A model generated the notes under the pieces. That model had not been told where the DNA came from and made no database searches. It worked only from the letters and a program-made list of their open reading frames with translations. The position numbers and the translations under genes are program-made. Below, one piece after another: positions 2,321 through 56,154 of a DNA stretch of 64,000 bases. Where the stretch lies: contig JAILRH010000187.1 of the NCBI GenBank assembly GCA_024698345.1, forward strand, positions 443-64,442, given 5' to 3'. This DNA comes from Lachnospiraceae bacterium (lineage in GTDB: Bacteria; Bacillota; Clostridia; Lachnospirales; Lachnospiraceae). Within the stretch, counting starts at the first letter, position 1. Each line of letters starts with the position of its first letter.

Positions 2321-2947
2321 ATGTTAAATAACTCATATATACATTGTTTAATGGGAGGCAGTATCAAACTTAATGAGAGCGATATTGTAAAAATTGATGG
2401 TATTAATTTATGTGCGGGAGTAAAGTATGGAGTTCCATATGAATACCGCATTTATAAGTCATTGAGAATAGAAATTAAAAGGGATGGGAGAGATTTTACT
2501 CCTATTTTAGAGAGTGATGCAACCTATGTGGAACTTGAAGGTATCCTGTATAGTATGCCAATGAATAAGGGAAGTGATTTCAGAAATATTGATATTGCTA
2601 ACCAGAGGGTATTGTTTGAAGAAGATGCGGTAATAATTGAAGCACACAACATGGTAAATGATTGGTATATGCCAACATGCTTCAGAGAAAAATTACCGTT
2701 TCAGATCTATAACAAGCAGATATTCCTTAGTGGACATACTAATGCAGCGGCAAGTGTACGGAAAGTTAAAGGTAAGTTCGAAGTGATAGTGCTTGATAAA
2801 TTACAGGAATATGAACTTGAAAAACTTGGATTGCTTGAAAGTGGTAACAAAGTGCAGAAAGAATTACGTGCTTGGTATCCCGAGGTAATGGTTACTGAAA
2901 TTAGAAGGAGGATTGACAATGAATTCAGAAAATACAGTTATGTATAG
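2321..2947 (+). CDS. hypothetical protein (208 aa)
   Basis: ORF with AAGGAGGA 8 nt upstream of ATG 2321; no motif recognised. Confidence 0.6.
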   Translation: MLNNSYIHCLMGGSIKLNESDIVKIDGINLCAGVKYGVPYEYRIYKSLRIEIKRDGRDFTPILESDATYVELEGILYSMPMNKGSDFRNIDIANQRVLFEEDAVIIEAHNMVNDWYMPTCFREKLPFQIYNKQIFLSGHTNAAASVRKVKGKFEVIVLDKLQEYELEKLGLLESGNKVQKELRAWYPEVMVTEIRRRIDNEFRKYSYV

Positions 2948-3983
2948 TTACAAATGTATGCACAGACCTCCTTCACCGGGAGCTGTGCCAAAGGACGGAC
3001 TTGTAGATGTTAAGGATTTTGACATGCGTGATGAAAGTGGTTGTTACGGAGAGGTTGTTTACAATCGTGCTTTATCAAATAAAGAAGTTTGCGATTACGA
3101 ACTGGAGCCTTTGAAGGAAAAACCAAAAAATATGATGTTTATCAATGCTAAAAAGAGTGATGTAGACAATGCCGTTAAGAGAATTATATGTACAAAGGGT
3201 TTCGGTGAAAACTGCGACTGTGACGCATGTAAAGCTTATGATAACGGTGTTAATCCTGATGTGCTGATAATAGATTGTAAGAATGATGAGCTTGGTGTTT
3301 CTGATTTTAGAGATAAGCTTAAGCATTTTTATTTCAAATCTATTAATATGTCGGCAAATAAGGTGTTGCTTATTGATGGTGCTGATGAATTATCAGATAA
3401 AAAGCAGAACGCATTGCTTAAATTTATTGAGGATTATAACGATAAGGCTGTATTGATTGCTATGGCTGGTGAAGAGAAGAGAGTTCTTAAAACCGTCAGA
3501 TCAAGAGTTTTTGTTAAGAGGTATTCAAGTATACTTGCTTATACTGATTTTTGTGAATACTGCAAGGATAAGGCTATTGATAAGGCAAATATTTATTACC
3601 TTCTTACTGATGGTGATGTAAATGAAATCAAGTCAGTTAATAACGTTGAAATCTATTCAAATCTTATATTGGCAGTAGCAGGGAAGAATGTTGCTGATTA
3701 TTTCAATCTCTTACATATATCCAAAGAAAAGGATAAAGAAGTGATTGTTAATGACAGAAGCAGCATTTTGATGTGTTACAGGCTTATAAGAAATGTACTG
3801 CTCGATTGTTTTCTTGGGAAAATGAATAAAGAGCATATTCTTACAGTTGAAGGTACTGTTTGGAAAACAAAAGAACTTGCAAACAAGATTGTTGAGCTTG
3901 ATCTTGAAATTGAGAAGGTTAGGAACACTAACTCGTACAAAGCGAAGGAGTTTCAGAGCTTCTCGATTAACCTTTTTAGTTAA
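2919..3983 (+). CDS. holB: DNA polymerase III delta'-like clamp-loader subunit with about 70-aa N-terminal extension
   Basis: ATG 2919 lies 7 nt after GGAGG. No P-loop. Zinc module CDCDAC. KVLLIDGADELSDKKQNALLKFIEDYN (cf. ANALLKTLEEP). TVRSRVF (cf. TIxSRC sensor motif). Confidence 0.65.
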   Translation: MNSENTVMYSYKCMHRPPSPGAVPKDGLVDVKDFDMRDESGCYGEVVYNRALSNKEVCDYELEPLKEKPKNMMFINAKKSDVDNAVKRIICTKGFGENCDCDACKAYDNGVNPDVLIIDCKNDELGVSDFRDKLKHFYFKSINMSANKVLLIDGADELSDKKQNALLKFIEDYNDKAVLIAMAGEEKRVLKTVRSRVFVKRYSSILAYTDFCEYCKDKAIDKANIYYLLTDGDVNEIKSVNNVEIYSNLILAVAGKNVADYFNLLHISKEKDKEVIVNDRSSILMCYRLIRNVLLDCFLGKMNKEHILTVEGTVWKTKELANKIVELDLEIEKVRNTNSYKAKEFQSFSINLFS

Positions 3984-4021
3984 TTAGTTAGATAGTGTAT
4001 TATTTTTTAAATTTAAAAGAA

Positions 4022-4055
4022 GGAGGAAGATGTTTATATAACATCGATGTGTATT
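4022..4055 (+). promoter_or_regulatory. SD-hairpin-AUG translation-initiation element (2 of 6)
   Basis: GGAGG 4022-4026, 2 nt, stem GATGTT/AACATC 4029-4045 (loop TATAT), 10 nt, ATG 4056. Confidence 0.5.
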
Positions 4056-4385
4056 ATGAAGAAAGGTTTGAAATTATATAATATTTATTTAGAAAAAGAG
4101 GAGGAAGTATTATTTCGTATCGGAAACTATGACAGCAACGGAAACACATATGTACAGATGATTGGAGCAGATGGAGAGCCTTACGGAGATCTTACTGTTA
4201 ATTTTGAAACATTGAATGACGAGAGAAAGGCTTATATTGATACAAATAATAATCCAGGTATCTTGAAGTTCATTGAAGATAACGAGTTGGGTTTTTGGTT
4301 TGGTCTTGAAAAACAGAGTAATTTTTGTACGTATCCTCTTTATTATTTGGATCTTGAGGAAATTAAAAAATATGTTGTTGAATAG
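4056..4385 (+). CDS. small hypothetical protein (about 109 aa)
   Basis: ORF-track start is 4047. ATG 4056 is preferred by analogy with the fixed 10-nt hairpin-to-AUG spacing at five other genes. Confidence 0.6.
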   Translation: MKKGLKLYNIYLEKEEEVLFRIGNYDSNGNTYVQMIGADGEPYGDLTVNFETLNDERKAYIDTNNNPGILKFIEDNELGFWFGLEKQSNFCTYPLYYLDLEEIKKYVVE

Positions 4386-4397
4386 GAGGAAATGCGA

Positions 4398-5744
4398 ATG
4401 TTATACAACGAAGACAGGCCCTTAAGTCTTGATGAGCTTAGAGGGCATGAGATAAATAAACAAATATTTAGAAGTCAGCTGAAAAATCAGAAGTTTGGAC
4501 ATGCCTATCTGTTTGCCGGACACCATGGCTCCGGTAAAACTACGGTGGCTAGAATTTTTGGACGTGCAGCAGTGTGTGAACATCCAACGGAGAATGGTCC
4601 TTGTATGGAGTGCGAAGCCTGTAAGAGATTTGGTTCATCAATTGACTTTGTTGAGATTGATGCAGCATCAAATACGGGTGTAGATGCCATAAGAGATAAG
4701 GTTATCGAAGCTGTTAAGTACAAGCCGGCAGAATTAAAAAAGAAAATAATTCTTATTGATGAGGTTCATATGCTTTCAACTAGTGCATTCAATGCATTGT
4801 TAAAGACAGTAGAAGAACCGCCGGAGAATGTAATTATTTTTCTTTGTACAACCGAGCTTAATAAAGTTCCAAAAACTATTGTTTCAAGGTGTCAGAAATT
4901 CATTTTCGAGGGGATTCCTCAAAATGAAATTGAAGATGGGGTTTTTGATTCGGCAAAAAAGCATGGAATTGATATTGAACCTGACGCAGTAAGGCTTATT
5001 GCTAAGATTGCTGATGGGTCAATGAGAGATGCTCTTTCTTTGTTGGAACAGGCTTCATCAAGCGGCACTGTTACAGAGTCAATGGTTGCTGAAATGACAG
5101 GCTATGGTTCGGCTATAGCAGTAGAGAGTATTCTTGATGGATATGTGAATGCTGATTACGATTTGATGTTTCAAGGTGTTGAAGAGTTCTTAAGAACGAG
5201 CAGTGTTAATACTCTTATTGAAGCTTTGATGGAAAAACTGATTGACAGAATTGTTACACATGATGGTGTCGATTACATTCCTTTAGTAAACGGATTGTCG
5301 GAAATTAAAGGAAAAAATGTTAGTCAGGCAGCAATTAAGGTGGTTTTATATAAGGTTGGCTGTGAGGAGTCTAAAATAGCTGCTCTTGAAAAGAGAGTGA
5401 GCGAACTTGAAGAAGCATTGAAGAACGGAGTTGTTATTAGCAGTGATAGTGCTGAGGTTGTGACAGAAGATGTTCCAAGCAAAGTAGCAAACGAAGGTGT
5501 AAATGACGTTTCTGGGGCAGAAAGTGAAGCCAAGGGAACAAATACACCGGATAAGGATGAACGTAGCGAAGATGAGCTGTTAGAGGCGCTTAATGCTGCG
5601 GGATTTAGTGATGTTACAGTAGCGGAAGAAAATCCTTTTGAGGAACCAGTAGAAGTACCTGTTGTAAAGGAAGAAAAGGTTGTAGAAAAGAAGAAAGAAC
5701 CTGAAACTAAATTTCCGGGTTTTTCTTCACCCTGGGATTGGTAG
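4398..5744 (+). CDS. dnaX: DNA polymerase III gamma/tau subunit
   Basis: Walker A GHHGSGKTT, zinc module CMECEACKRF, Walker B ILIDEVHML, sensor TIVSRCQKF, acidic/Lys-rich C-terminal tail. ATG 4398 is 8 nt from GGAGG; the ORF-track ATG 4392 is only 2 nt away. Confidence 0.9.
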   Translation: MLYNEDRPLSLDELRGHEINKQIFRSQLKNQKFGHAYLFAGHHGSGKTTVARIFGRAAVCEHPTENGPCMECEACKRFGSSIDFVEIDAASNTGVDAIRDKVIEAVKYKPAELKKKIILIDEVHMLSTSAFNALLKTVEEPPENVIIFLCTTELNKVPKTIVSRCQKFIFEGIPQNEIEDGVFDSAKKHGIDIEPDAVRLIAKIADGSMRDALSLLEQASSSGTVTESMVAEMTGYGSAIAVESILDGYVNADYDLMFQGVEEFLRTSSVNTLIEALMEKLIDRIVTHDGVDYIPLVNGLSEIKGKNVSQAAIKVVLYKVGCEESKIAALEKRVSELEEALKNGVVISSDSAEVVTEDVPSKVANEGVNDVSGAESEAKGTNTPDKDERSEDELLEALNAAGFSDVTVAEENPFEEPVEVPVVKEEKVVEKKKEPETKFPGFSSPWDW

Positions 5745-7447: not shown

Positions 7448-10400
7448 ATGGAATTTAGTATAGGGTTTCAGACGATTTCATTAGATTTTGCAGTGGTTGC
7501 GAACGAGAAAGGCTATGTATACTCAATTTTTGACAGATCCGCAATGATGGTAAGAAGCATGGCGGTTCAGGCATCATTCGATTCGGTAGCTATTGAAGGG
7601 AAAACCTATGGTGTTCCAAGAAATTCAGAAGGTGATAGTTACAAGACTAAAAGATACATTGAAAGGTTCGAAAGTGGTAGGGACAGAGTTTCATCAGCGC
7701 TTATAGTCAATGGAGCTATAGGTGAAAAAGTATTTTTGACTGATGATAAAGGTAAATATGATGATTTCTACAACTTTCTTATGAACAACTATACCTTACC
7801 GTTGCTTAAAGAGTGGTCGGGCTATCTTTATGATGGTCTTGTTCGTTCTTATTTTGTAAGTGAATACAGGAATGCTGTTATTGGTGAGAGACTTGAAAGA
7901 GAGATTACTCTTAATGGCAGAAATATTAGACTTGATGAAATGATTCTTGTTGATTGCAGCAGTCTTGATGAGGAATTTCTTAAGCGACAGGTAAGTACGG
8001 GACTTTCAAGTAAGAAGATTTGTATTACCGAGTTACCGGTTAAAAAACTTGAATTTGAAAATCTTGATGAGTATTACCAGAAGTATGGAAAGAATATCGT
8101 AGAAAACTTAGAAAGGGTTATCGATCCTTTGAATGAGATTGATGGCTATTGTCCGTATGTTGCTACAAAGTCGAAAAGACTTTTTCCGGCACAGGCTAAT
8201 GGTGTTAATGCTTATATTAAAAAGTTTGAAACATCAAATGGTGCCATAGCCAATATGGATATGGGTACTGGAAAAACACTGCAGGCGTTAACAACCTTTG
8301 ACGGCTTTTTTAATAAAAAGCAGATGAGTCAGGGGAAGACACTTAAACAGGTGATTGATGAAGATTGCGTTAATTATGTTGGTGCAGTCCTTTGTCCGTC
8401 GCATTTGGTTAGCAAATGGGTAAGTGAGGTCAGTGAATTGCCTAATGCTCACGCAGAAGCAGTTACTTCGTTGGCTCAGCTTATTAAGATTAACGAAAAC
8501 AGAAACTTATACAAAAAGGGAAAGCATATTTTTGTTTTCTCTAAAGATTTTGCAAAACTTGGGGATATGAGGGCGCCAATTCCTACTACGGTAAGTCGTG
8601 TGTTGAGAGCCCCTTATGTTCAGTATTGTGTTGATTGTCATAAGAATACTGGCAATTACAGGTACAGGCAGTTTGGTGACAGAGTATGTAGGCATTGTGG
8701 TGGAAATAATTGGAGAAAATCATTATCAAGAGAGGTGTCGGGTAATGCAGTTCTTTGTCCTCATTGTAATGAGGTTTTAATTAAGAACACAACTAAAAAG
8801 ATTGACAAAAACAGTTATCCGGAGATTCTTACTCCTGTTGATTTTTCAAGTGAAACTTCTGCTAACAGAAAATGTTACAACTGTTTAAATCCTCTTTGGG
8901 GAGCCCAGGTAAAAAATAAAGGAGACGGTTATAAATACAAGTGGAAAAAACTTGGATATTATACCAATAAAAGCCGAAAAGGAACGAGTACAGCTTGGAT
9001 TCTTGACGGTTTTAAGAGTAGCTTCATGTCAGTAAAGAACTTGAAAGAGGATGAAGTGTGGGAATCATCTAATATAGGTGTAAGAAAGTATTCGCCTGCA
9101 AGATATATTCAAAAACACATGAAAAACTTTTTTGACTTTTTTATTGCGGACGAAGCTCATATGTATGAATCATCATCTGCACAGGGACAGGCATTTGCTT
9201 CGCTTGCGAAAGTGTCAAAGAAGACTTTGGCACTTACAGGAACACTGACTAACGGTTATGCAAAAGGCTTGTTTTATCTGTTTTGGAGAATAATACCTCA
9301 GAAAATGGTTGATATGGGGTATGAATTTTATGGCAGAGATGGTGTAGGAAAGTGGAATTACACATATGGTGTTTTAGAGAAGAGAACTGAGTATACGGAA
9401 GAAGAACTTAAATACAATACTTCATCTCGCGGGAAAAAAGACTCTGGGATGTTTAAAGAAAGACCGGGTGTTTCACCGCGGCTTATGAAGGATTTTCTTT
9501 TAGAAGATGTAATTCAGTTACAGATTTCAGACTTGAGTGAGGGGCTGCCTGAACTTAAGGAAGAGATTGTGTCTGTTGAGCCTGAGAAAGAAGTAGTAAG
9601 TAGTCTTAATTCGCTTACGAATACACTTAAGAATTGGGCCAGCAATAATAAATGCCCTGCAATTAATATTGCAGCTTTAAGGTACCAGCTTTTTTATACC
9701 GATCAGCCGTATGACATACCACCAATATTAAGTCCTTTAACGAGGGGGGATATAGTAGCTGCACCGGATAATTATCCTGATTTGGTGGCAAATGGAGGTT
9801 TGTTAAAGAAGGAAATAAAACTTGTTGAAATCGTAAAGAAAGAGCTTGAGGAAGGAAGAAGATGTTATGTGTTTTTGGAAAATACAGGTAAATCGGAATT
9901 TTTCCTCTTAAAACGTATTAAAAAGGTTTTGGAAGAAAATGTTCCTTGTGCTAAGCCTCTCATTATGGAAGCCAATTCAACTTCTGCAAGTAAAAGAGAA
10001 GACTGGATGAAAAATAAGATTGAGAAGGAAAAGTACAATATTGTTATTTCTAACCCAAGACTTGTTGAAACAGGAATCGATTTTGTGTGGAAAGCAAAAA
10101 ACGGTGAGGGTTATAACATTCCAACAATTGTATTTTATCAGGTAGGTTGGTCGCTTGCTACTTTATGGCAGGCATCAAGAAGACACTACCGTTTGATACA
10201 GAAAGAACAGTGTCGTACATATTATATTGTGTGCGAAGGAACTATGCAGCTTGAATGTCTTCAGATGATGGCAGAAAAACAGGTTGCTGTGTCGGCCATT
10301 CAGGGCGGCGAGTTCTCATCAAGAGGACTTTCGTCTATGGCAAAAGGTGTTGACCCAAAGATTGAGCTGGCAAAAAGAATGCTCGCAGGTGAGCATTCAG

Positions 10401-11925: not shown

Positions 11926-12351
11926 ATGGCAGAATTTTTTTCGGGACGCTGTGATGCGGAAACAAAAAGACGTTTTAGCGACTTGTTTGACGAAGAAGAG
12001 TTGTCTTTTGGCGATAAAATTAATATAATGCTTGACAGTTATGAAGAGTTGCATAAAAATCATCATCCTGATCCAATAGGTTTGAAAGTGTCTATGAATT
12101 CGATGAAGAGAAGTTTTGAAAATTCACTTCTTCAATTAGATGAAATGGAACGTTTGTATAATACTTTTGCAAATAAACTTTCAGATGTTGCTAATGTATC
12201 GGAGCTTAAGGCTGAGAATAAGGCTATAAAGTCCGAAAATGCAAAACTACGTCAGGAGTGCAATTCGCTTAAAAATGAATTAAAAAAATGTGAAGCAGAA
12301 TATAAAGATGCTGTACGTGCACTGATTTCGCTTGAGCAAAAGATTAAGTGA
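11926..12351 (+). CDS. coiled-coil protein, possible ribbon-helix-helix-like N-terminus
   Basis: ATG 11926 follows AAGGAGGA. The C-terminal two thirds are heptad-like (KAENKAIKSENAKLRQECNSLKNELKKCEAEYK). Confidence 0.55.
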   Translation: MAEFFSGRCDAETKRRFSDLFDEEELSFGDKINIMLDSYEELHKNHHPDPIGLKVSMNSMKRSFENSLLQLDEMERLYNTFANKLSDVANVSELKAENKAIKSENAKLRQECNSLKNELKKCEAEYKDAVRALISLEQKIK

Positions 12352-12372
12352 AACGGTGATTAGATAAAAATT

Positions 12373-12828
12373 ATGAATAAGGTTATTTTAATGGGTCGAT
12401 TAACTAGAGACCCTGAAATTAGATATTCTCAGTCGGGAGATGGCCAGTTGGCAATTGCCAGATATACATTAGCCGTTGACCGCAGATTTAAAAGAGATGG
12501 TGATCAGCAGACAGCAGATTTCATTTCATGTATTGCATTTGGCAAACAGGGAGAATTTGCTGAGAAGTACTTACATCAGGGAACAAAGATGGTTGTCGAG
12601 GGAAGAATCCAGACAGGCAACTATACAAATAAAGAAGGCCAAAAAGTATATACAACAGATGTTGTGGTTGAAAACTCGGAATTTGCAGAGAGTAAAGCTT
12701 CAGCATCGAGTGTTGGAGTAAGTGTAGGTTTTAAGGGACAGACACCTCCGCAGCCAACATCAAATGTTGGTGATGGCTTCATGAATATACCAGATGGTGT
12801 AGAGGACGAAGGATTACCTTTCAATTAA
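12373..12828 (+). CDS. ssb: single-stranded DNA-binding protein
   Basis: MNKVILMGRLTRDPEIRY OB-fold start, Gly/Pro/Gln-rich linker, acidic tail DEGLPFN. Confidence 0.9.
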   Translation: MNKVILMGRLTRDPEIRYSQSGDGQLAIARYTLAVDRRFKRDGDQQTADFISCIAFGKQGEFAEKYLHQGTKMVVEGRIQTGNYTNKEGQKVYTTDVVVENSEFAESKASASSVGVSVGFKGQTPPQPTSNVGDGFMNIPDGVEDEGLPFN

Positions 12829-12834
12829 TAATTA

Positions 12835-12860
12835 GCCTCGCATTTGCGGGGCTTTTTTTT
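12835..12860 (+). terminator. intrinsic terminator after ssb
   Basis: GCCTCGC ATTT GCGGGGC stem-loop followed by T8. Confidence 0.8.
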
Positions 12861-12863
12861 ATG

Positions 12864-12872
12864 TGGTATAAT
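12864..12872 (+). promoter_or_regulatory. candidate extended -10 for cas12a
   Basis: TGgTATAAT immediately after the ssb terminator; -35-like TTGCGG lies in the terminator stem 17 nt upstream. Confidence 0.4.
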
Positions 12873-12921
12873 TTTTGAGAAAATAAGATGTTAAGAAAGA
12901 TAAATATCATTGGAGGTAAGG

Positions 12922-15900
12922 ATGGGGAGTAATCTTGATCTTTTTAGGAATAGAACAATACAAACAAAAACGATTTGTCAAAAATTAATCCCAATGGGTA
13001 AAACGAGGGAAACAATTGAAAAATACAATCTTATGGAAATTGACAGAAAAATAGCAGAAAATAAGGAACTGATGAACAAGCTGTTCAGTCTTATAGCAGG
13101 CAAGCATATAAATGATACACTTGCTAAATGTACTGATTTGAATTTTATTCCAATATTTGAGGGAATTACGGCACTAAATCAAGCAAAAGAGAACAATAGA
13201 GATAATTTGAGAGATTACTATGATACTGTTTTCGAAGCGAGAAAAAGTGTAGCAGAAGAAATTTCATCAAGATTAATAGAGTTGAAGTTTGCGGGAAAAG
13301 ATTTCTTCACTAAGATTATTCCTGATTTCTTGGAAAAATATAATGGTAAAGATAAAAATGAAATGAGTGAACTTGTATCGTTAGTAGTTGAAAATACCGC
13401 AACTGCTGGGTATGTAAAAAAACTCGAGAAAATAGATAATTCAATGGGTGTAAAATTGGTATCTGGGACAGTTGTAAAGAGGGTATTGACGGATAATACA
13501 GATATTTACGAAAAAAATATTGCACATACTAGAAATTTTGACTATGGAGTATTGCAAATTGAAGAATCAACTCAGTTTATGACTTTAGATTGGAAAGATT
13601 ATTCAAATTATATAACAGCTGATGGAATAGCTTTATATAATGCCATTATTGGAAAAATCAACCTTGCACTTAATGAATACTGCCAAAAGAATAAGGAATA
13701 TTCTTTTAATAAGTTGGCTCTTTTACCATTGCAAAAGATGTTGTACGGAGAAAAAACGAGTCTTTTTGAAAAATTGGAAGATTTTAGCTCTGATGATGAA
13801 CTTATAAACGCATATAACTCATTTATAAAAACAGTAAATGATTGTAAAATTGCTGAGAATATCAAAAAGACCATACCTTCTTATGATGAAATTATGATTA
13901 AGACTAACAAAATCAATTATTATTCTAATGTTATTACTGGTCAATGGTCAGCTGTTAATAGAGCCATGAAAGACTTTTTGGAAGATAATGGAATTAAAAA
14001 TGCCGATAAATATATGGAAAAAGGACTTACAGCATCAGAAATAGAAGATGCTTTGGAACATAAGAATATTAAACACACAGATTTTATATCAAATCTTATT
14101 ACAGATTTAGGTCATACTTATGCAGAAATTAAAGAAAATAAGGAATCGCTGAAAAAAGATGATTCCTTAAATTCAGTAATAATAAAAAAAGAATTGGATA
14201 AGTTGCTTTCAGTATTGCAAAACTTAAAGGTATTGGATGTGGATAATGAGATTTTTGATACAGGTTTTGGAATTGAGGTTTCTAAAACAATTGAAGTTTT
14301 GGGATTTGGTGTTCCTCTGTACAATAAAATTAGAAATTATATTACAAGGAAACCTGATCCAAAGAAAAAGTTTTTGACAAAATTTGGTTCAGCAACTATT
14401 GGAACAGGTTTAACAACAAGTGTTGAGGGTTCAAAAAGGGCAACGTTCATAAAAGATGGTGATGCTGTATTTCTTCTCTTATATAACGGCTATGGATGTA
14501 AAGCAAACAATATATCTGTAAGCAACCTTGCTGCGATTATTAATTCCGAACTTAGAGATACTAATAATGGCAATTCATATCAGAAGATGATATATCAGAC
14601 ACCTGGGGATATTAAAAAACAGATTCCAAGAGTGTTCGTTTACAAGTCTGAGGATGAAGAGTTGATTAAAGACTTCAAAGCAAAACTTCATAAAACGGAT
14701 TTATCATTTTTAAATGAAAGATTAATCCCTTATCTTAAAGAAGCCTTCGCAAATCATGAAACTTATAAGAATTATAAATTTAGCTATAAAAACAGTTATG
14801 AGTCATATGATGAATTTTGTGAGCATATGTCAGAACAGGCATATATCCTTGAATGGCAATGGATTGACAAGAAACTAATTGATGACTTGGTTGAAGATGG
14901 CTCTCTTTTGATGTTCAGAGTATGGAATAGATTTATGAAGAAAAAGGACGGGAAAATAAGCAAACATGCTAAAATTATAAACGAGCTTTTCTCTGAGAGA
15001 AACACATCAAATGCAGCAATTAAGCTGTTAAGTGTGTTTGATATTTTCTATCGAGATAAACAGATTGATAATCCTATCGTACATAAGGCTGGTTCTACTC
15101 TTTATAACAAGAGATCGAAGGACGGAGAAGTAATCTCTGATTATTCTTCAATGGTTAAGAATAAAGAAAAAAGAGAAAACGTTTATACTACAACTAAAAA
15201 GTACGATATAATCAAAGATAGAAGATATACTGAAGAGCAATTTGAATTACATATCCATGTTCAACTTGGAAAAGAAGAGAATAAAGAGATCCTTGAAACT
15301 TCAAAACTTATAAACGAAAAAAAGAATACTTTAGTAGTGACAAGAAGTAATGAGCATTTGCTTTATGCAGTAGTGTTTGACGAAAATGATAATATTCTTC
15401 TCAAAAAATCATTAAATACAGTTAAGGGTATGAACTTTAAATCAAAACTTGAAGCAGTAGAGATTCAGAAAAAGGAAAATATGCAGAGCTGGAAGACAGT
15501 TGGCAGTAATCATGCATTAATGGAAGGTTATCTTTCTTTCGCAATAAAGGAAATTGCTGATTTGATTAAGGAATATGATGCAATTCTTGTTTTAGAACAG
15601 AATTCTATTGGTAAAAATCTTCTTAACGAGCGTGTTTATACAAGATTTAAGGAGATGCTTCTTACTAACTTGTCATTGGATATAGATTACGTGAACAATG
15701 ACTTTTATTCATATACGGAAGTTGGGCAAAAGGTTAGTTCTTGGAGAGATTCTGTAACTAATGGAATCTGTATTCAGGTACCATCTGCTTATAAGTATAA
15801 GGACCCGACAACTACTTATTCTCCGGTAAGTATGTATGCAAAAACAACAGCAGAAAAAACTAAAAAACTCAAGCAAATCAAATCATTTAAGTATAATCGA

Positions 15901-16335
15901 GAAAAAGGTTTGTTTGAATTGGTTATTGCAAAAGGAGTAGGGCTTGAGAATAACATTGTATGTGATTCCTTTGGAGCAAGAAGTACTATTGAGAATGATA
16001 TCGCCAAAGAAGTAAACTGCACCATTAAGATTGAAAAATATCTCATTGATGCAGGTATCGAATACAATGATGAAGGGGAAATACTGAAAGAACTTGATAC
16101 TGCAACAAAGACAGATGCAGTTCATAAGGCGATATCTTTATTATTAAAGTGCTTTAATGACGAAGCAGGTGGAAGATATTACATATCGCCTTGTGGAGAA
16201 CACTTTACTTTATATGATACCCCTGAAGTATTATCTGCAATCAACTATTACATACGAAGTCAATACATAAGGAGACAGATTGTAGAAGGTGTAAAAAAAG
16301 TAGACTACAAGAAAATAATTCTACTTGCAGGATAA
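12922..16335 (+). CDS. cas12a: Cas12a (Cpf1)-family type V-A effector with substituted RuvC-I/Nuc residues
   Basis: ATG 12922 lies 5 nt after GGAGG. KTICQKLIPMGKT N-terminus; WED His/Lys/Lys triad region; RuvC-II AILVLEQ. RuvC-I reads LVVTRSNEHLLY instead of IGIDRGERNLLY. A canonical Cas12a-type repeat array follows immediately downstream. Confidence 0.9.
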   Translation: MGSNLDLFRNRTIQTKTICQKLIPMGKTRETIEKYNLMEIDRKIAENKELMNKLFSLIAGKHINDTLAKCTDLNFIPIFEGITALNQAKENNRDNLRDYYDTVFEARKSVAEEISSRLIELKFAGKDFFTKIIPDFLEKYNGKDKNEMSELVSLVVENTATAGYVKKLEKIDNSMGVKLVSGTVVKRVLTDNTDIYEKNIAHTRNFDYGVLQIEESTQFMTLDWKDYSNYITADGIALYNAIIGKINLALNEYCQKNKEYSFNKLALLPLQKMLYGEKTSLFEKLEDFSSDDELINAYNSFIKTVNDCKIAENIKKTIPSYDEIMIKTNKINYYSNVITGQWSAVNRAMKDFLEDNGIKNADKYMEKGLTASEIEDALEHKNIKHTDFISNLITDLGHTYAEIKENKESLKKDDSLNSVIIKKELDKLLSVLQNLKVLDVDNEIFDTGFGIEVSKTIEVLGFGVPLYNKIRNYITRKPDPKKKFLTKFGSATIGTGLTTSVEGSKRATFIKDGDAVFLLLYNGYGCKANNISVSNLAAIINSELRDTNNGNSYQKMIYQTPGDIKKQIPRVFVYKSEDEELIKDFKAKLHKTDLSFLNERLIPYLKEAFANHETYKNYKFSYKNSYESYDEFCEHMSEQAYILEWQWIDKKLIDDLVEDGSLLMFRVWNRFMKKKDGKISKHAKIINELFSERNTSNAAIKLLSVFDIFYRDKQIDNPIVHKAGSTLYNKRSKDGEVISDYSSMVKNKEKRENVYTTTKKYDIIKDRRYTEEQFELHIHVQLGKEENKEILETSKLINEKKNTLVVTRSNEHLLYAVVFDENDNILLKKSLNTVKGMNFKSKLEAVEIQKKENMQSWKTVGSNHALMEGYLSFAIKEIADLIKEYDAILVLEQNSIGKNLLNERVYTRFKEMLLTNLSLDIDYVNNDFYSYTEVGQKVSSWRDSVTNGICIQVPSAYKYKDPTTTYSPVSMYAKTTAEKTKKLKQIKSFKYNREKGLFELVIAKGVGLENNIVCDSFGARSTIENDIAKEVNCTIKIEKYLIDAGIEYNDEGEILKELDTATKTDAVHKAISLLLKCFNDEAGGRYYISPCGEHFTLYDTPEVLSAINYYIRSQYIRRQIVEGVKKVDYKKIILLAG

Positions 16336-16449
16336 ACAATCCTCAGTCTTGATGAGGGAGGAATAGAATTGTATATGTTAAAATGTACAAGTATGAGCTT
16401 TATTGATTATTAGATGATGTAATATTTTGTGCATTTTGACAATATACGA

Positions 16450-16917
16450 GTTAAATTAATAATAAATGTCTACTATACTGTAGATAACTATATTGTTAGG
16501 TATATTGCGTCGTTAAATTAATAATAAATGTCTACTATACTGTAGATAGAGATATGGTTGTGCATAGTATTTCAGTTAAATTAATAATAAATGTCTACTA
16601 TACTGTAGATCTGCTTAGGTCTGTTGCAAATGCAAGAGTTAAATTAATAATAAATGTCTACTATACTGTAGATTTATCCATTGTTAAGTTCTTAATAAAC
16701 TTAAATTAATAATAAATGTCTACTATACTGTAGATTGATAGCAGTTTCCACTGTTTTCTGCGTTGAATTAATAATAAATGTCTACTATACCGTAGATTCG
16801 ATTTGCTTAGACCATCAATAGAGAGTTAAATTAATAATAAATGTCTACTATGGTGTAGATAACTGATAGAGAAAGAGTGAAACAGACTTAAATAAAAATG
16901 TCTATCATAGCATAGTT
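16450..16917 (+). CRISPR. type V-A CRISPR array, 7 spacers
   Basis: 36-nt repeat GTTAAATTAATAATAAATGTCTACTATACTGTAGAT at 16450, 16512, 16575, 16638, 16700, 16762 and 16825, plus a truncated degenerate copy at 16887-16917. Spacers are 26-27 nt. The repeat 3' end forms the Cas12a handle UCUAC-loop-GUAGA-U. Confidence 0.95.
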
Positions 16918-16994
16918 CTCAAATTGATATCGTTTGGCAGAATAATAAAAAATTGCTATTGTGTAGTACGTTTTTTTCAATAATATTTAATGTA

Positions 16995-17154
16995 TTGCCA
17001 TTTTTTGTCATATGTGTTAAACTACAACTGTGTATTAAAAGTTACACGTTTTATTTTTCGTTTGAACAGAATAGGGTATATTATTAAAAGACTGTTTTTC
17101 GATGGTCTTTGTTTTTATGAGCGGAGTCGGAACAAATATGCTGACTCCGCTTTT
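16995..17154 (+). promoter_or_regulatory. promoter plus three-hairpin leader ahead of the T4SS operon (diverged copy C)
   Basis: TTGCCA 16995-17000, 17 nt, TGtTAAACT 17015-17023. Hairpins GTGTA/TACAC 17030-17047 and AAAGAC/GTCTTT 17087-17110. Terminator GCGGAGTC/GACTCCGC 17121-17150 plus TTTT, then ATGCCC box, SD, ATG 17181. Confidence 0.5.
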
Positions 17155-17180
17155 ATGCCCTTATTCAAGGAGGATATTGG

Positions 17181-17648
17181 ATGGATGTAGTTGATTCACC
17201 AAGAGTGGAATTGCTCGCAAAAAATAAGAAAAAGAACAATAAAAACAAGACAAATACAAAAACTAAGAAAGGTGTCTTAGAATATAATTCAAAGAAAAGC
17301 GTAGATGTTAAGAAAGAAATCACAGAGAAGAAAGAGACGAGTAATTCAAGTGGAGGAATTAACTCATTTGATGTTTTAACTCAACAGCCTTCGTCTGATG
17401 TATTTGCTACGCCGAGGGAACACACAGAGGGGTTTCTTGCAAGCGGATACAGTTTGTTTTTTACAACAGGAACAATAATGGCTATTTTATGTATAATGGC
17501 AAGTGGTATTTCGTTTATGTGGAATCATAACAGGAATGCTGGAAAAGAGATAAAACATACGCTTACAAAAATATTATTTTATTCAGGTTTGTTATTCGGC
17601 GCAGTGTCGATAGCAACTTTAGCATATAACATAGGAAAATCATTATAA
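17181..17648 (+). CDS. small 2-TM membrane protein, VirB2/TrbC-pilin-like or Maff2-like (paralogue 1)
   Basis: Lys/Asn-rich N-terminus, then TM, MW, basic loop, TM (ILCIMASGISFMWNHNRNAGKEIKH...LLFGAVSIATLAY). Confidence 0.5.
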   Translation: MDVVDSPRVELLAKNKKKNNKNKTNTKTKKGVLEYNSKKSVDVKKEITEKKETSNSSGGINSFDVLTQQPSSDVFATPREHTEGFLASGYSLFFTTGTIMAILCIMASGISFMWNHNRNAGKEIKHTLTKILFYSGLLFGAVSIATLAYNIGKSL

Positions 17649-17666
17649 TTATTGGAGGTATTACAA

Positions 17667-18047
17667 ATGAAAAAAATGAAATTACTTGCTATGGGAGCTA
17701 TATCATGGTTAGATTATACAATAATCAGAGTTAACAGTGTGTTGGCTGATTATAAGCCAGAAGATATTAAAAATAATAGTGATGGCACTTTTGATCCCGT
17801 TGAAGATGCTATTAAAGGGAAAGGTGCTTCTGCATTTAGTCTTCTTCAGACTATTGGTGTTATTTCTGCCGTATTAACAATTATTGCAGCCGGTTTAGGA
17901 ATTATGTGGTTCCCAAGTGCTAATAAGAAAGATGAGCATAAGTCAAAGCTTGCTATGATTGCTTTTGGTGCAGCTTTAGTGTTTGGTGCAATATCAATTG
18001 TAACTGTTTTCATGGGATTCTTTTCCCCTACAGGAGCGACAAAATAA
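17667..18047 (+). CDS. small 2-TM membrane protein (paralogue 2)
   Basis: ATG 17667 is 8 nt from GGAGG. Signal-like N-terminus, then VLTIIAAGLGIMWFPSANKKDEHKSKLAMIAFGAALVFGAISIV. Confidence 0.5.
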   Translation: MKKMKLLAMGAISWLDYTIIRVNSVLADYKPEDIKNNSDGTFDPVEDAIKGKGASAFSLLQTIGVISAVLTIIAAGLGIMWFPSANKKDEHKSKLAMIAFGAALVFGAISIVTVFMGFFSPTGATK

Positions 18048-18807: not shown

Positions 18808-20046
18808 ATGTTGGAACAGCTTAATGATTATCTCCACATACTTACTGCGATAATTATTGTTATTGGCGCGGTGTTACTTGGAGCTAGTTTTTTCTTTATT
18901 AAAAAGGGAATACGAGTAAAGGCAAAAAATGAAGATGAAAGTGATTACAGTAGCTTCGATAGGGAAGATGCAAGTACATATTTAGAGTTCGATGATATTA
19001 TTGATACTGTTAGTGGAGCAATCATGGTTGTTGTTCCTAACAAACAGTATATTGCAATGCTTTCAACTGTAGGAAGTGAATGGAAATCTGCAAGCAGAGC
19101 AGATAAAATTGCAAGGATTGGTTCTGAGGTTTCAAGAATGTCTATCATAAAGAATCCGATGGAGGTATGGCAGTATGCAAAACCTGTTGATATGTCGGAT
19201 TATATAAAGAAGTATGAAGAGAGAAGAAATTTTATTAATAATCAATACTTGAATGCGAAGGCTGATTATGAGGAATTGAAAGCAAAAGCAGATTTTATAG
19301 ATAACGATAATTTTGAAGTGTTTTATGAAGAAGTAAAGAAAAAGAGAGCTGAAGTTTTCTCTCTTGATTTCCAAAGAAAGAACATTGATGAACAGATTGC
19401 TTATGTGAAAAGGATTACAGGTCCTGGTTCAGAGCCTGAGAAATGTATCTGCTATGTGTTTGAGTGGAATTATGATCCAATTAATTTTACAGACCCGCTT
19501 GAAGAAGACGAGATTTGGAGACAGGCTGCAAAAGAATTGGATAATCTTTGCAAAAAACATATTGATTCATTAGCCGGCAGTGGCGTATATGCAAGACGAA
19601 TGAACAAGGCAGAGATGATAGAAGCAATAAGAAGACAGACTTGTCCTATTACTGCAGACATATATAATATTGATGATATTATTGGTAGCTCATTTAATGA
19701 GATGGTTGTTGAGAGCGACTCTCTTGCGGAAGAACTTGAGTTGAAAAGAAGGGAAGATACTGAGGATTCTGTAGTTGAGGAATTCTCGTTCGATGTTCTT
19801 AAAAAGAAACAAAGATACAATGAATTGCTTAATGACAAGATAAGAATTACCATTCGCTGTACAGACTGTGGTAAAAAAGCGAATATTGATATGACTGATG
19901 AACAGTATGGTCGTTACAGAAGATATCTTTCAGGCGAAGGCTTGATCCAGGATATGCTCTATGATTTGAAAGAAGAGCATAAGGAATTAATTCTTTCAGG
20001 ATTGTGCCAGTCATGTCTTAATGAGGGGGTGAATGGAGTTGACTAG
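18808..20046 (+). CDS. membrane-anchored T4SS-operon protein with C-terminal zinc ribbon
   Basis: N-terminal TM (ILTAIIIVIGAVLLGASFFFI), charged coiled region, CTDCGKK...CQSC. Confidence 0.5.
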   Translation: MLEQLNDYLHILTAIIIVIGAVLLGASFFFIKKGIRVKAKNEDESDYSSFDREDASTYLEFDDIIDTVSGAIMVVVPNKQYIAMLSTVGSEWKSASRADKIARIGSEVSRMSIIKNPMEVWQYAKPVDMSDYIKKYEERRNFINNQYLNAKADYEELKAKADFIDNDNFEVFYEEVKKKRAEVFSLDFQRKNIDEQIAYVKRITGPGSEPEKCICYVFEWNYDPINFTDPLEEDEIWRQAAKELDNLCKKHIDSLAGSGVYARRMNKAEMIEAIRRQTCPITADIYNIDDIIGSSFNEMVVESDSLAEELELKRREDTEDSVVEEFSFDVLKKKQRYNELLNDKIRITIRCTDCGKKANIDMTDEQYGRYRRYLSGEGLIQDMLYDLKEEHKELILSGLCQSCLNEGVNGVD

Positions 20047-22333
20047 AGAAATATATATGTTTATTGCAATGATTTCTATGATCGTATTGTTTAGTGCTGT
20101 CATAATGAAGATTGTTATTGCATTAAAAAAACGAGATTATGAGCAAGAATTGGAAGAGAGCGAAAAGTTTTCCGATGAAGAAATTAGAACATTTAACGAA
20201 GTAGAGCATGATATATTCGACAAGAAAAGAGTTGTTAAGCAGCTTGTAGCTCCTAATGGTATTAATCCAAAACCACTTGGATATCTTATAGTAAATGACG
20301 GTGGTGTTGATGTTTATAAAAGAACATTTACAATCGATCAGCTTCCAAAGAAGATGAGATTTGCAGATACTTGGCCTGCAATAGCAAATTTTGAAGGCTC
20401 AACAGCATCCGTTTTTATTGAACCTCTTACAACAAAAGAGGCATCTAAGCAGCTTGATAACCATGTTGTTGAACTTGATGCCGAAATAATACATGCTGAA
20501 AAGCCTGAGATTCAGGATAGAAACAGGGCGAGAAAACTTCGTTCTCAAAGACGTAAAACAGAAAACTGGGCAGATAAAATTGAAGGTGGAGATGATTCTT
20601 TCTATAGAGTGGGATTTCTCATTACGATTGCTGCAGAGTCTTTGTCAAAATTAAATCTGATGTCTGATACTTTACAAAAAACTGCACAGGAAAAGGGAAT
20701 GCTTCTCTCTTCTTGCTACAGTGTTCAGTCAGAGGCATTTAAGTCAAATATGCCAATGAACAGGATATACAGAGGAAAGCTCAATGCTTCGCCTGTTAAA
20801 TGGCACCTTATGAATAAGGAATCGGTGGCATGTATATATAATCATACTACTGAGAGATTTATGCATGAAAATGGTATTCCACTTGGAAGGAATATGTATA
20901 CAGCAGATCCAGTTACTTTCGACCTTTATCATAAGGGACATAAGAAAGGTTATTCGGTTATATTCTCCGGACCAATGGGTGTTGGAAAATCGACTGTAGT
21001 TAAGAAGATGATGAATGAGTTTATGTCAATGTATGACTACAGATTTGTTGTTATTGATTCGCAGTCCGTTGCTGGAAGGGGTGAGTATGTAAATACCTGT
21101 CTTGCAAACAATGGAACTGTGTTTGAAATTTCTCACCGTTCTAAGAACGTTGCAAACCTGTTTGATGTAAATGAAGAAATTACTGCGGAGGGTAAACGAG
21201 ACCTTAAGCTGAGCGAAAAAATTGAAAGTTTGGCATCTGCTTTTTCTACAATGCTTCAGATACAGACAGCAACCTTTGCTGAAAGCACTTACATTAGAGA
21301 TATTAATATGAAAATGTTGGGTGAGGCTTATACTGTGCTAGGTATTTATGATGGAAAGCCTGATTCGCTTTATGAAGAAGGAAAAGTATCTTCAAAGGGA
21401 GAAATTGTTGCAGGTAAGGTAAGAAAAGAAATGCCGACAATATCTTCATTCTACAAGCAGCTTCTTATTGGAATGAAAAATGAAACTAATGAGAAGAAAA
21501 AGGAAGTATACGATATTATGCTCTCGGGATATGCGAGATTTGTCAGAGGTGTTTACTATTCTCAGGACAAGCTTGATTTCTTAACAAAGGAAGAGTTTTA
21601 TAAACTTCCGGAAAAAGAAATCAATAAGAAGAAATATCGTTACAGACTTGTAGATGGAGTAGAAGAGTTGGTTATTGGTGTTGAGGGACAATCATCTTAC
21701 TTTGACGGACAGTCAAACGTATCGATTGACAAGAAATGTCCTTGTACCGTATTTGATATATCTGCACTTCCAAAAGAAGAGCAGAAGATGGCCAGGGGGT
21801 TACTTTCTCCATATATTGAAGAAAACTTTGTTAAAACAAATAATGAAGATATTACAAAAGCTGAAAAGCTCGTACTTGTATATGATGAAGCTTACGAACA
21901 GTATAATGTTGGATTGGCTTCAAGAAAACAGTGTTCAGGATTGTCGAGAACATGTAGAAAGAAGAATGTTGGTTTGTGGTGGATTACACAGGCTTGCGCC
22001 GATTATGATGTAGATGATGATTTAAGAGCAATCTTTAAATTGTCAGATATGAAATTTATCTTCCAGCAGTCAAGCATGGATGATGAATTCTTAAAATCAG
22101 CACTAACGCTTACTGATAATCAGAGAAAGAGACTATATGTTATTAATGGTTCAAAGAGTGCTGACGGACAGACTTATTCTAAACCGGGACAGGTGTGTTT
22201 GATAGATGGTGCAGCTGTATGTTTCCTACAAGTAGAAATTATGCCTGAAACAGAAGGTTTTATTGTAGAAACAGATATGAGAAAGTTAGCTAAGAAGTAT
22301 GGAAAGGATGCGATGTGGTGGAATCAGGAATGA
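20033..22333 (+). CDS. virB4: VirB4/TcpF/PrgJ-type conjugation ATPase
   Basis: 766 aa, N-terminal TM, Walker A FSGPMGVGKST, Walker B LVLVYDEAY, in an operon with other T4SS parts. Confidence 0.8.
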   Translation: MELTREIYMFIAMISMIVLFSAVIMKIVIALKKRDYEQELEESEKFSDEEIRTFNEVEHDIFDKKRVVKQLVAPNGINPKPLGYLIVNDGGVDVYKRTFTIDQLPKKMRFADTWPAIANFEGSTASVFIEPLTTKEASKQLDNHVVELDAEIIHAEKPEIQDRNRARKLRSQRRKTENWADKIEGGDDSFYRVGFLITIAAESLSKLNLMSDTLQKTAQEKGMLLSSCYSVQSEAFKSNMPMNRIYRGKLNASPVKWHLMNKESVACIYNHTTERFMHENGIPLGRNMYTADPVTFDLYHKGHKKGYSVIFSGPMGVGKSTVVKKMMNEFMSMYDYRFVVIDSQSVAGRGEYVNTCLANNGTVFEISHRSKNVANLFDVNEEITAEGKRDLKLSEKIESLASAFSTMLQIQTATFAESTYIRDINMKMLGEAYTVLGIYDGKPDSLYEEGKVSSKGEIVAGKVRKEMPTISSFYKQLLIGMKNETNEKKKEVYDIMLSGYARFVRGVYYSQDKLDFLTKEEFYKLPEKEINKKKYRYRLVDGVEELVIGVEGQSSYFDGQSNVSIDKKCPCTVFDISALPKEEQKMARGLLSPYIEENFVKTNNEDITKAEKLVLVYDEAYEQYNVGLASRKQCSGLSRTCRKKNVGLWWITQACADYDVDDDLRAIFKLSDMKFIFQQSSMDDEFLKSALTLTDNQRKRLYVINGSKSADGQTYSKPGQVCLIDGAAVCFLQVEIMPETEGFIVETDMRKLAKKYGKDAMWWNQE

Positions 22334-53385: not shown

Positions 53386-53573
53386 TTAGTCTTTTTATGG
53401 CATCAGAAAATCCAACAGATTTCTCATTAGAGGAGCTGTTGGATTTTTATTATCACTGTCCCTGACTATAGCTCGCAGTATATGCGTCTTGAATTTGTAG
53501 AATTATCAAAGAAACTTAATAAAGCAGATTCAGCAATTTCAAGACAGGTTTGGTTTTAGAAAAGGAGGAAGAT

Positions 53574-54257: not shown

Positions 54258-54273
54258 ATTATAAAAATAAAAA

Positions 54274-54306
54274 GGAGGAAGATGCTATTTAGCATCGATA
54301 TGAATT
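54274..54306 (+). promoter_or_regulatory. SD-hairpin-AUG translation-initiation element (5 of 6)
   Basis: GGAGG 54274-54278, 2 nt, stem GATGCT/AGCATC 54281-54296 (loop ATTT), 10 nt, ATG 54307. Confidence 0.5.
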
Positions 54307-56109: not shown

Positions 56110-56115
56110 TAGAAA

Positions 56116-56154
56116 GGAGGATGAGAGCTGCGTTTTGCGGCTCTCTATATTTAT
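56116..56154 (+). promoter_or_regulatory. SD-hairpin-AUG translation-initiation element (6 of 6)
   Basis: GGAGG 56116-56120, 2 nt, stem GAGAGCTGC/GCGGCTCTC 56123-56145 (loop GTTTT, one G-U), 9 nt, ATG 56155. Confidence 0.55.

Follow-up and report, generated by a model that had tools for sequence, protein, structure and literature searches.

Cas12a, the effector of type V-A CRISPR systems, is, with one other nuclease, a workhorse of genome editing, and replacement of its RuvC-I aspartate alone by alanine (As D908A, Lb D832A, Fn D917A) abolishes DNA cleavage while leaving CRISPR RNA (crRNA) processing and DNA binding in place. To our knowledge, all examples of this nuclease-dead form (dCas12a) to date have been engineered mutants. 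Elsewhere in type V, interference by binding alone has been documented for V-M and V-C (PMC12669027; PMC11656645), and the 2025 classification recognizes inactivated V-C, V-K, V-M, V-O, V-P and possibly Cas12b3, its V-A entry mentioning V-A2 only (PMC12669027). A 2024 review of CRISPR in mobile elements names plasmid competition for type IV and V-M only (PMC11656645), a 2025 survey of Cas12a clades found the RuvC and Nuc catalytic residues conserved in all subtypes, and a census of plasmid CRISPR systems does not mention V-A. Here we analyzed a 64,000-nt stretch of contig JAILRH010000187.1 (the window) from a gut or rumen Lachnospiraceae bacterium, in which a conjugative plasmid-like element carries a gene, here called dcas12a, for a Cas12a-family effector with substituted catalytic residues. 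The original prediction, made from the DNA letters of the window, had proposed a naturally DNase-inactive, crRNA-processing Cas12a from a V-A clade not yet described; our search of the openly accessible literature likewise returned no description of a natural dCas12a or of such a clade.

Judged by sequence and fold, the window protein is a Cas12a of the V-A lineage that lacks the family's catalytic hallmarks. It scored 327 bits against the NCBIfam equivalog model TIGR04330 (cas_Cpf1; trusted cutoff 300), Pfam found RuvC_1 and Cpf1 REC2 together with a Cpf1 PI-like match just below threshold (25.5 bits, cutoff 27), and all 26 PDB chains matched by phmmer were Cas12a, headed by Lb2Cas12a (2e-52). 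A profile of the clade to which the protein belongs aligned by hhalign to a profile of 12 canonical Cas12a sequences with 100% probability over residues 2-1121, and the top 50 Foldseek matches of an AlphaFold2 (AF2) model were exclusively Cas12a, the best at 8e-46 over the full length. Between them, Pfam, hhalign and Foldseek recovered the bilobed Cas12a architecture (WED, REC1, REC2, PI, RuvC with bridge helix, Nuc), and the claim of a full-length Cas12a-family effector stands. Identity to ordinary Cas12a is 22-26%, and the protein falls ~130 amino acids short of the canonical median of 1267. The original prediction was right about the shortening and wrong about its place: the deficit does not lie mainly in Nuc/RuvC-III but is distributed over the whole protein (REC2 -30, WED-III -20, C-terminus -18, Nuc -16, REC1 -15, RuvC-II -13, PI -11). 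Because the 148-amino-acid C-terminal fragment alone drew no Cas12a match and no significant sequence match from the PDB, residue equivalences in that part rest on profile and multiple alignments.

The open reading frame (ORF) has two candidate starts, TTG 12910 and ATG 12922, and a ribosome-binding sequence, GGAGG, lies at 12911-12915. ATG 12922 begins 7 nt after this GGAGG, and the true product is therefore 1137 amino acids long. Residue numbers originally counted from 12910 equal those used here plus 4; the positions and codons hold and the start at 12910 does not. The public annotation of the gene (P0001, from a Lachnospiraceae metagenome-assembled genome [MAG]) is a 'hypothetical protein' of 1113 amino acids with no Cas label. 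P0001 begins at Met25, 24 N-terminal residues too late, omitting window 12922-12993; the N-terminal strand TKTICQKLIP, which lies in the omitted part, is conserved in all orthologues. Upstream, a candidate terminator hairpin (8-bp stem with 6 GC pairs, then a T-run) sets the preceding ssb gene apart from the dcas12a transcription unit, and an extended -10-like element (TGGTATAAT), read by eye, follows it at about 12863-12871.

The catalytic RuvC residues of the canonical enzymes, D908/E993/D1263 in As, D832/E925/D1180 in Lb and D917/E1006/D1255 in FnCas12a, correspond in the window protein to Thr807, Glu892 and Glu1102. At RuvC-I, HMMER paired 'nviGIDRGERnLLY' with 'ntlVVTRSNEhLLY' and MAFFT concurred, so that GIDRGER reads VVTRSNE and the predicted replacement of Asp by Thr (Thr811 in the earlier numbering) is borne out. 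Glu892 of RuvC-II is retained, as had been stated, in both the HMMER and MAFFT alignments; it is Glu in 145 of the 147 full-length cluster representatives (P0039-P0184 among them) that lie closest to the clade profile, a sample biased towards the query, and is invariant in the clade. Ahead of the RuvC-III Asp of canonical Cas12a, ~15 residues are deleted in the window protein. Here hhalign placed V1103-L-S-A over A-N-G-A of DANGAY (the DANGAY helix reading EVLSAI), which puts Glu1102 at the catalytic Asp position; MAFFT aligned Glu1102 there directly, and this equivalence, flagged earlier as less certain, is firmer than supposed. The Nuc-domain Arg of the LQMRNS motif, needed for target-strand cleavage and present in 117 of the 147 relatives, is replaced by Phe1078, which MAFFT and hhalign (clade against the 12 canonical sequences, motif LQ[LM]RNS) both aligned to it, as originally read.

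The crRNA-processing triad is intact, again as predicted. His721, Lys730 and Lys765 of the WED domain, presumably the counterparts of FnCas12a H843/K852/K869, are invariant in the clade, and their columns hold His in 147/147, Lys or Arg in 144/147 and Lys in 145/147 relatives, respectively. Arg570 occupies the column of the PI domain that contacts the protospacer-adjacent motif (PAM), where 95 of the 147 relatives have Lys and 27 have Arg; it is invariant Arg in the clade and presumably equivalent to the PAM-contacting Lys of As (K607) and Lb (K595). From the substitutions at RuvC-I, RuvC-III and Nuc we infer that DNase activity has been lost.

A word-indexed homology search returned P0002 (84% identity) and P0003 (56%), with the next relative at only 25%. 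An exhaustive profile search covering 1.84 billion representatives added P0036, P0037 and P0038 (712-785 bits), after which the next match fell to 293 bits; a word-indexed search with the six-member alignment gave no new member and did not recover P0036-P0038. The clade comprises at least six proteins of 34-84% identity, all encoded by intact full-length ORFs, which form one long-branched group in a rough neighbour-joining (NJ) tree. Across the six members the RuvC-I residues are T/T/T/G/T/T (Gly in P0036) and those at the Nuc Arg position F/F/F/N/Y/Y, while Glu892, Glu1102, the RNase triad and Arg570 do not vary. What is kept of the Thr/Glu/Glu and Phe pattern is therefore a non-Asp residue at RuvC-I, a non-Arg residue in Nuc and both Glu residues; the Thr itself gives way to Gly once and the Phe to Tyr, Tyr and Asn. 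The ratio of nonsynonymous to synonymous substitution rates (dN/dS) between the window gene and its orthologue at locus L002 was 0.082 overall, 0.051 from RuvC-I to RuvC-II and 0.153 in Nuc/RuvC-III. Frameshifts or stops in orthologues had been named as the sign of a dying gene; six intact ORFs and a dN/dS of 0.08 show that it is not one, and the substitution pattern is held in the clade under strong purifying selection, not random decay.

The gene is followed by an AT-rich leader and a V-A-type CRISPR array of seven repeats. The 36-nt repeat (GTTAAATTAATAATAAATGTCTACTATACTGTAGAT; copies at 16450, 16512, 16575, 16638, 16700, 16762 and 16825) ends in the V-A handle hairpin UCUAC-loop-GUAGAU, oriented as expected for the + strand; the seven spacers are 26-27 nt long, and the array closes with a degenerate repeat at about 16887-16919. 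This hairpin and the His/Lys/Lys of the WED domain suggest that the effector processes its own crRNAs. The base 5' of the handle stem is G in the window and A in L009, versus U in canonical handles. Among sigma70-like sequences in the region, the highest-scoring (TTGACA-16-AATAAT, 11/12, 16436-16463) straddles the junction of leader and first repeat, and an AATAAT -10-like hexamer is present in every repeat; the overall count of sigma70-like promoters was not above that in shuffles, and the placement alone is suggestive. An Rfam scan of window 12000-18000 gave nothing meaningful.

V-A-type arrays, with spacers of 25-29 nt, occur at every orthologue locus with enough downstream sequence, directly downstream of the gene in L002, L004, L008 and L009 (L007 ends 139 bp after the gene). 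In L009 the stem shows compensatory changes, from UCUAC/GUAGA to CCUAC/GUAGG and CCUGC/GCAGG. An alignment search of metagenome contigs with VirB4 gave 2 loci, of which L011 was informative: L009 and L011 are copies of one element with 97.6-99.0% nucleotide identity over the backbone, and their leader-proximal spacers all differ, the terminal unit alone being common. The window and L002 arrays similarly have near-identical repeats and zero common spacers. On this evidence spacer acquisition is ongoing, with no adaptation genes in view.

Two peculiarities of the orthologue arrays were also recorded. The promoter-distal part of the L002 array (13959-14168) consists of four repeats of growing divergence, in which the 5' halves differ and the loops vary with the stems intact (for example GTCTACTGCAGCGTAGAT), and the spacers there are shorter (21-24 nt). 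Upstream of the L009 gene, which starts at 10001, two solitary repeat-spacer-like units without a window equivalent lie at 9677-9830; the handle is of the canonical V-A form in one (AATTTCTACTTATGTAGAT) and of the element's own form in the other (AATACCTACTGATGTAGGC), and the latter unit is followed by a terminator-like hairpin. Such units might act as decoys, in the manner of an RNA anti-CRISPR, or as guides for autoregulation; a search with them found no informative target or self-match.

Two spacers have identifiable targets, both in sister elements. Spacer 5 of the window array (TGATAGCAGTTTCCACTGTTTTCTGC) matches 21 of 26 nt in the dcas12a gene of L002 (L002 11627-11652, - strand), and spacer 6 of L002 matches 23 of 26 nt at a protospacer-like site inside the window ORF 29004-31781. 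Both sites carry a 5'-TTTC PAM (2/2), in keeping with the T-rich 5' PAM (TTTV) of Cas12a, with n=2. When 35 spacers were compared with 10,596 TTTV sites (193 kb), allowing ≤3 mismatches in 22 nt, 2 matches were seen against 0.007 expected from shuffled spacers, and 0 of 300 shuffles reached 2. Translated, spacer 5 reads AENSGNCYQK, intermediate between NNGNSYQK of the window protein and ENSRNCYQK of L002, and its source was therefore a third dcas12a gene; the window's own site homologous to the spacer 5 target has a CTTC flank and ~10 mismatches. No window spacer matched the window within 6 mismatches. Further spacer cross-matches with ≥5 mismatches lacked a TTTV PAM and were taken as chance. 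The window array and 28 orthologue spacers gave chance-level matches only (E about 0.4-0.9) in the INPHARED phages and PLSDB plasmids, and seven spacers searched as exact 23-24-mers gave no match in IMG/VR; the clade's elements are probably absent from these collections. No relatives of the target ORF 29004-31781 were found in genome contigs.

Each of the two protospacers belongs to the template (-) strand of a gene on the + strand, so that its crRNA would pair with the coding strand and with the mRNA. On the RNA side both would be flanked by GAAA(A), similar to the protospacer flanking sequence (PFS) of the RNA-targeting Cas12a2-4, a likeness that with n=2 may be chance.

A Pfam scan of the 41 window ORFs of at least 100 amino acids characterized the window as a one-strand, pCF10-like conjugative element (Table 1). 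None of these ORFs matched Cas1, Cas2 or Cas4, and none of the three was present at the orthologue loci; the cas4-cas1-cas2 module that typically, if not universally, adjoins V-A effectors was not found at any of them. The conjugative setting without cas1/2/4 described in the original prediction is thereby borne out. All clade members are on conjugative or plasmid contigs, of which the following were detailed in addition to the window. L002/L013, on a 206-kb contig from a rumen MAG of the Lachnospiraceae, has SpaA, resolvase and PcfJ; L004 adjoins a Rep3 plasmid initiator; L008 has resolvase, PcfJ and sortase; and L009 is syntenic with the window (clamp loader, DUF6094, SSB, SNF2, a 397-amino-acid gene, effector, array and type IV secretion system). 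A conserved partner gene beside the effector was considered and rejected, the neighbours varying from locus to locus, and since no neighbour gene is common to all loci, the effector appears to act alone.

Table 1. Coordinates of dcas12a, its array, residues of interest and other features of the 64,000-nt window
Feature	Position	Strand	Remarks
DnaX/clamp-loader-like AAA+ genes, two	2913-5744		Pfam
DUF6094 methyltransferase and SNF2 helicase genes			Upstream of dcas12a; SNF2 2 kb upstream
SSB gene	12373-12828		Upstream of dcas12a
Intrinsic-terminator-like hairpin and T-run	12834-12860	+	3' end of upstream ssb; hairpin itself 12834-12853
dcas12a	12922-16335	+	1137-amino-acid Cas12a-family effector; Thr/Glu/Glu at the three RuvC positions, Phe at the Nuc Arg position
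Arg570	14629-14631	+	PAM-contact column of the PI domain
WED RNase (pre-crRNA processing) residues	15082-15216	+	His721 15082-15084, Lys730 15109-15111, Lys765 15214-15216
Thr807, RuvC-I catalytic position	15340-15342	+	Codon ACA, in place of Asp; HMMER, MAFFT
Glu892, RuvC-II	15595-15597	+	Codon GAA, retained
Phe1078, Nuc-domain Arg position	16153-16155	+	Codon TTT; MAFFT, hhalign
Glu1102, RuvC-III catalytic Asp position	16225-16227	+	Codon GAA; hhalign, MAFFT; invariant in clade
AT-rich leader	16336-16449	+	114 nt, between dcas12a and array
CRISPR array, V-A type	16450-16919	+	7 repeats, downstream of dcas12a
Spacer 5	16736-16761	+	Match in L002 dcas12a gene, TTTC PAM
TrbC/VirB2-like pilins, two	17181-18047		
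VirB4-like ATPase	20033-22333		
Lysozyme and NlpC/P60	25177-27288		
Protospacer-like site with PAM	29418-29447	-	Site 29418-29443, TTTC PAM 29444-29447; L002 spacer 6
SpaA adhesin, LRR (leucine-rich repeat) adhesin, PcfM-like domain	Window		Pfam

The combination of ssb and a methyltransferase gene resembles plasmid leading regions with anti-defence genes (PMC11541004), a neighbourhood that hints at early expression after transfer. Several further observations concern the element at large. Nearly all long ORFs in window 1-64000 are on the + strand and the GC skew is positive in each 2-kb window, which fits unidirectional replication and/or transfer polarity. The first clamp-loader-like gene (window 2913-5744) has an N-terminal DarA_C (defence against restriction) domain, and its module is syntenic in L009. 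A cluster resembling prokaryotic ubiquitin systems occupies window 53550-59032 (Prok-E2_D 53550-54257, JAB and PcfM-like 54307-56109, ThiF/E1-like 58259-59032). Exact-protein look-ups of the window SSB and pilin returned no record.

We consider it somewhat probable that the protein is a natural dCas12a with which one plasmid interferes with another by binding only, in analogy with Cas12m and type IV. In this scheme the array would be transcribed, and the effector would cut its own pre-crRNA through the intact WED RNase site and hold the canonical 5' handle hairpin. The resulting ribonucleoprotein (RNP) would use its retained PI/WED apparatus for PAM reading to locate double-stranded DNA flanked by TTTV, where it would form an R-loop; with the RuvC-I Asp replaced by Thr, the Nuc Arg gone and the RuvC-III region remodelled, no cut would follow. 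Unable to cut, the RNP would remain bound, an obstacle to the target's expression, replication or establishment. Since the identifiable targets are sister conjugative elements, including a rival's dcas12a, the module would serve plasmid competition. New spacers are probably installed in trans by the Cas4-Cas1-Cas2 of a co-resident V-A system, because the element itself is without adaptation genes. From sequence we infer each of these parts: that DNase activity is lost, that crRNA is processed, that interference is by binding only and that spacers are acquired in trans. The observation behind the original prediction was confirmed, and the comparisons support a narrower interpretation of it: of the roles once listed, rival-plasmid targeting gained from the two TTTC-flanked sister matches, while self-regulation met with no self-match and phage silencing with no phage match.

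Several points weigh against this interpretation. Targets were identified for just 2 of ~35 spacers, both imperfectly, and one has three PAM-proximal seed mismatches. A protospacer on the template strand, where both were found, is the weaker orientation of dCas12a-based CRISPR interference (CRISPRi) for a roadblock inside ORFs. Two acidic residues, E892 of RuvC-II and E1102 of RuvC-III, remain invariant, possibly a sign that some catalysis persists, perhaps in altered form, and that their role is not purely structural. The quality of the AF2 model is mediocre (predicted local distance difference test [pLDDT] 67, predicted template modelling score [pTM] 0.39).

The invariance of both Glu residues in a clade reaching down to 34% identity, together with a constraint that is strongest, gene-wide, at the RuvC scaffold (dN/dS 0.05), would suit a protein that is still a nuclease, either through an active site rearranged around Glu892, Glu1102 and another residue or through an RNP that recruits a separate nuclease or helicase, as in type IV-A with DinG and some Cas12m loci with Cas3; both the window and L009 do have an SNF2-family helicase gene 2 kb upstream. 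We nevertheless regard this as unlikely. The RuvC-I Asp coordinates both metals in RNase H-fold nucleases and its loss alone kills Cas12a, one clade member has Gly in its place, the Nuc Arg is lost too and the segment ahead of RuvC-III is deleted, and no neighbour is conserved over the six loci, the SNF2 gene not standing beside the L002, L004 and L008 copies. The strand and flank of the protospacers bear on a different possibility, that the loaded protein binds mRNA and blocks its translation or stability without cleavage, as a dead counterpart of Cas12a2, Cas12a3 and Cas12a4: at both sites the crRNA is antisense to mRNA, and the GAAA(A) flank resembles their purine-rich PFS (PMC12851939). 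These are two data points, which would agree by orientation alone with a chance of 1 in 4; the nearest proteins in sequence and fold are DNA-targeting Cas12a, the PI-like domain and PAM-contact position are kept, and the known RNA-targeting relatives depend on active RuvC (PMC12851939), leaving RNA targeting, in our estimate, distinctly improbable.

Only a slender chance attaches as well to an anti-CRISPR decoy, in which dead Cas12a would soak up host V-A crRNAs or cover the plasmid's own protospacers. The repeat handle is near to canonical V-A handles, the ssb and methyltransferase genes that neighbour it in the window and L009 are of a kind usual in anti-defence leading regions (PMC11541004), and there is a precedent in II-C2, a phage-encoded RuvC-inactive Cas9 variant (PMC10910872, PMC11656645). 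II-C2, however, has no array, whereas clade loci with enough downstream sequence have arrays with rapid spacer turnover; two spacers match rival elements at a PAM, and the base 5' of the handle stem is consistently G or A instead of the canonical U. The same full turnover between near-identical elements is unlike the fixed guides expected of a domesticated RNA-guided transcription factor for the element's own or host genes, a role that we hold to be very unlikely. Inactivated RNA-guided nucleases do act as regulators, as reported for TldR (PMC10705468), and L009 has its two solitary repeat-spacer-like units upstream of the gene; these units have no informative self-match, and no spacer matches the window within 6 mismatches. 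A functionless, decaying remnant of a V-A locus, to which the lost catalytic residues, the failure to find cas1/2/4 and the degenerate terminal repeat might have pointed, is effectively refuted by intact ORFs in six lineages down to 34% identity, a dN/dS of 0.08, conserved RNase and PAM-contact residues and arrays with turnover.

Loss of the RuvC-I Asp extends beyond the clade. In the query-biased sample of 147 relatives, 39 lack the RuvC-I Asp and have N, T, S, K, H, C, I, G, V or A instead (mostly Asn, Thr and Ser); in the NJ tree these sort into about ten separate locations, and most retain the RuvC-III Asp. Among 79 GTDB-representative loci, the sole RuvC-I-substituted one was a member of the clade. 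Some of the substituted lineages have settings of their own. In L092 (Asp to Asn), a conjugative element with SSB, relaxase and coupling protein (T4CP) bears cas4-cas1-cas2 and a 9-repeat array; the gene of the L094 lineage lies between giant polyvalent proteins, and that of L096 adjoins an RRXRR protein. P0034 and P0035 (L005 8001-11732 and L006 218-3919) represent a second Cas12a-like lineage without the RuvC-I and RuvC-III Asp. The L005 gene is flanked by ParA/ParB and FtsK/SpoIIIE, with solitary canonical handles at 7756 and 13147 and an irregularly spaced mini-array of GCCTAC...GTAGGC units at 13267-13670; in L006 an array with the stem GTCTAA...TTAGAC lies upstream.

A broader proposal, which we advance tentatively and at somewhat less than even confidence, is that nuclease-dead V-A is an unrecognized recurrent weapon of Gram-positive conjugative elements and a class 2 counterpart of type IV, placed beside genes of leading-region type (ssb, methyltransferase, SNF2), expressed early after entry into a new host, silencing resident sister plasmids including the rival's dcas12a through TTTV-guided binding, and refreshing its array with adaptation proteins borrowed in trans. 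If true, it would offer naturally optimized dCas12a for CRISPRi tools and an instance of CRISPR-against-CRISPR silencing between plasmids. For classification, V-A would be added to those branches of type V in which cutting was lost independently (V-C, V-K, V-M, V-O, V-P), with this clade as a candidate V-A variant. For plasmid ecology, nuclease-free CRISPR warfare would extend from type IV and V-M, mostly Gram-negative, to pCF10-like elements of gut and rumen Firmicutes. As a tool, a compact (1137 amino acids), self-processing DNA binder would be of interest for multiplexed CRISPRi, base editing and imaging.

Compared with known systems, the locus resembles V-A Cas12a (Fn, As, Lb, Lb2) in its TIGR04330 match, full-length alignment, fold, WED RNase triad, array downstream of the gene, crRNA 5' handle hairpin, lack of a tracrRNA and T-rich 5' PAM (TTTC 2/2), and differs from it in the RuvC-I Thr, the RuvC-III Glu with its preceding deletion, the lost Nuc Arg, a shortened lid after RuvC-II, a length smaller by ~130 amino acids, 22-26% identity, the lack of cas4-cas1-cas2 and residence on conjugative elements. 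Cas12a2, Cas12a3 and Cas12a4 are Cas12a-related branches able to share V-A-type repeats. Assignment to these RNA-triggered nucleases, which have three RuvC motifs and a zinc ribbon (PMC12851939), was rejected, the RuvC-I Asp being absent; no CxxC pairs are visible in the window protein, and no Cas12a2 chain was among the PDB matches at E≤1. Cas12c (V-C) and Cas12k (V-K) are also type V effectors that bind DNA without cleavage, but Cas12c keeps an active RuvC for crRNA processing and Cas12k is tied to Tn7-like transposition genes. A Cas12k-like CRISPR-associated transposon was rejected for the window gene, with no tnsB, tnsC or tniQ nearby and SSB, SNF2, pilin, resolvase and Rep3 as neighbours.

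The likeness to the binding-only plasmid systems V-M and IV-A would be one of function, with no homology to Cas12m or Csf proteins. Type IV-A3 similarly resides on conjugative plasmids without an adaptation module, carries trans-acquired spacers against plasmids and acts in a nuclease-free, CRISPRi-like manner (bioRxiv 10.1101/2023.06.23.546257), but it is a class 1 multi-subunit complex with a DinG helicase and has no homology to the window effector. Cas12m (V-M) shares plasmid enrichment, interference by binding without cutting and plasmid competition (PMC11013384; PMC11656645), and differs in its independent origin, being a compact protein of another Cas12 branch, whereas the dcas12a product is full-size, derives from V-A and goes with a V-A handle. 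Engineered dCas12a (As D908A, Lb D832A, Fn D917A), as used for CRISPRi, corresponds to the window protein in the removal of the RuvC-I Asp and in the self-processing and PAM-dependent binding that the window protein is predicted to retain; unlike these laboratory mutants, the window protein is natural, ancient and multiply remodelled, and has presumably been optimized for binding by selection.

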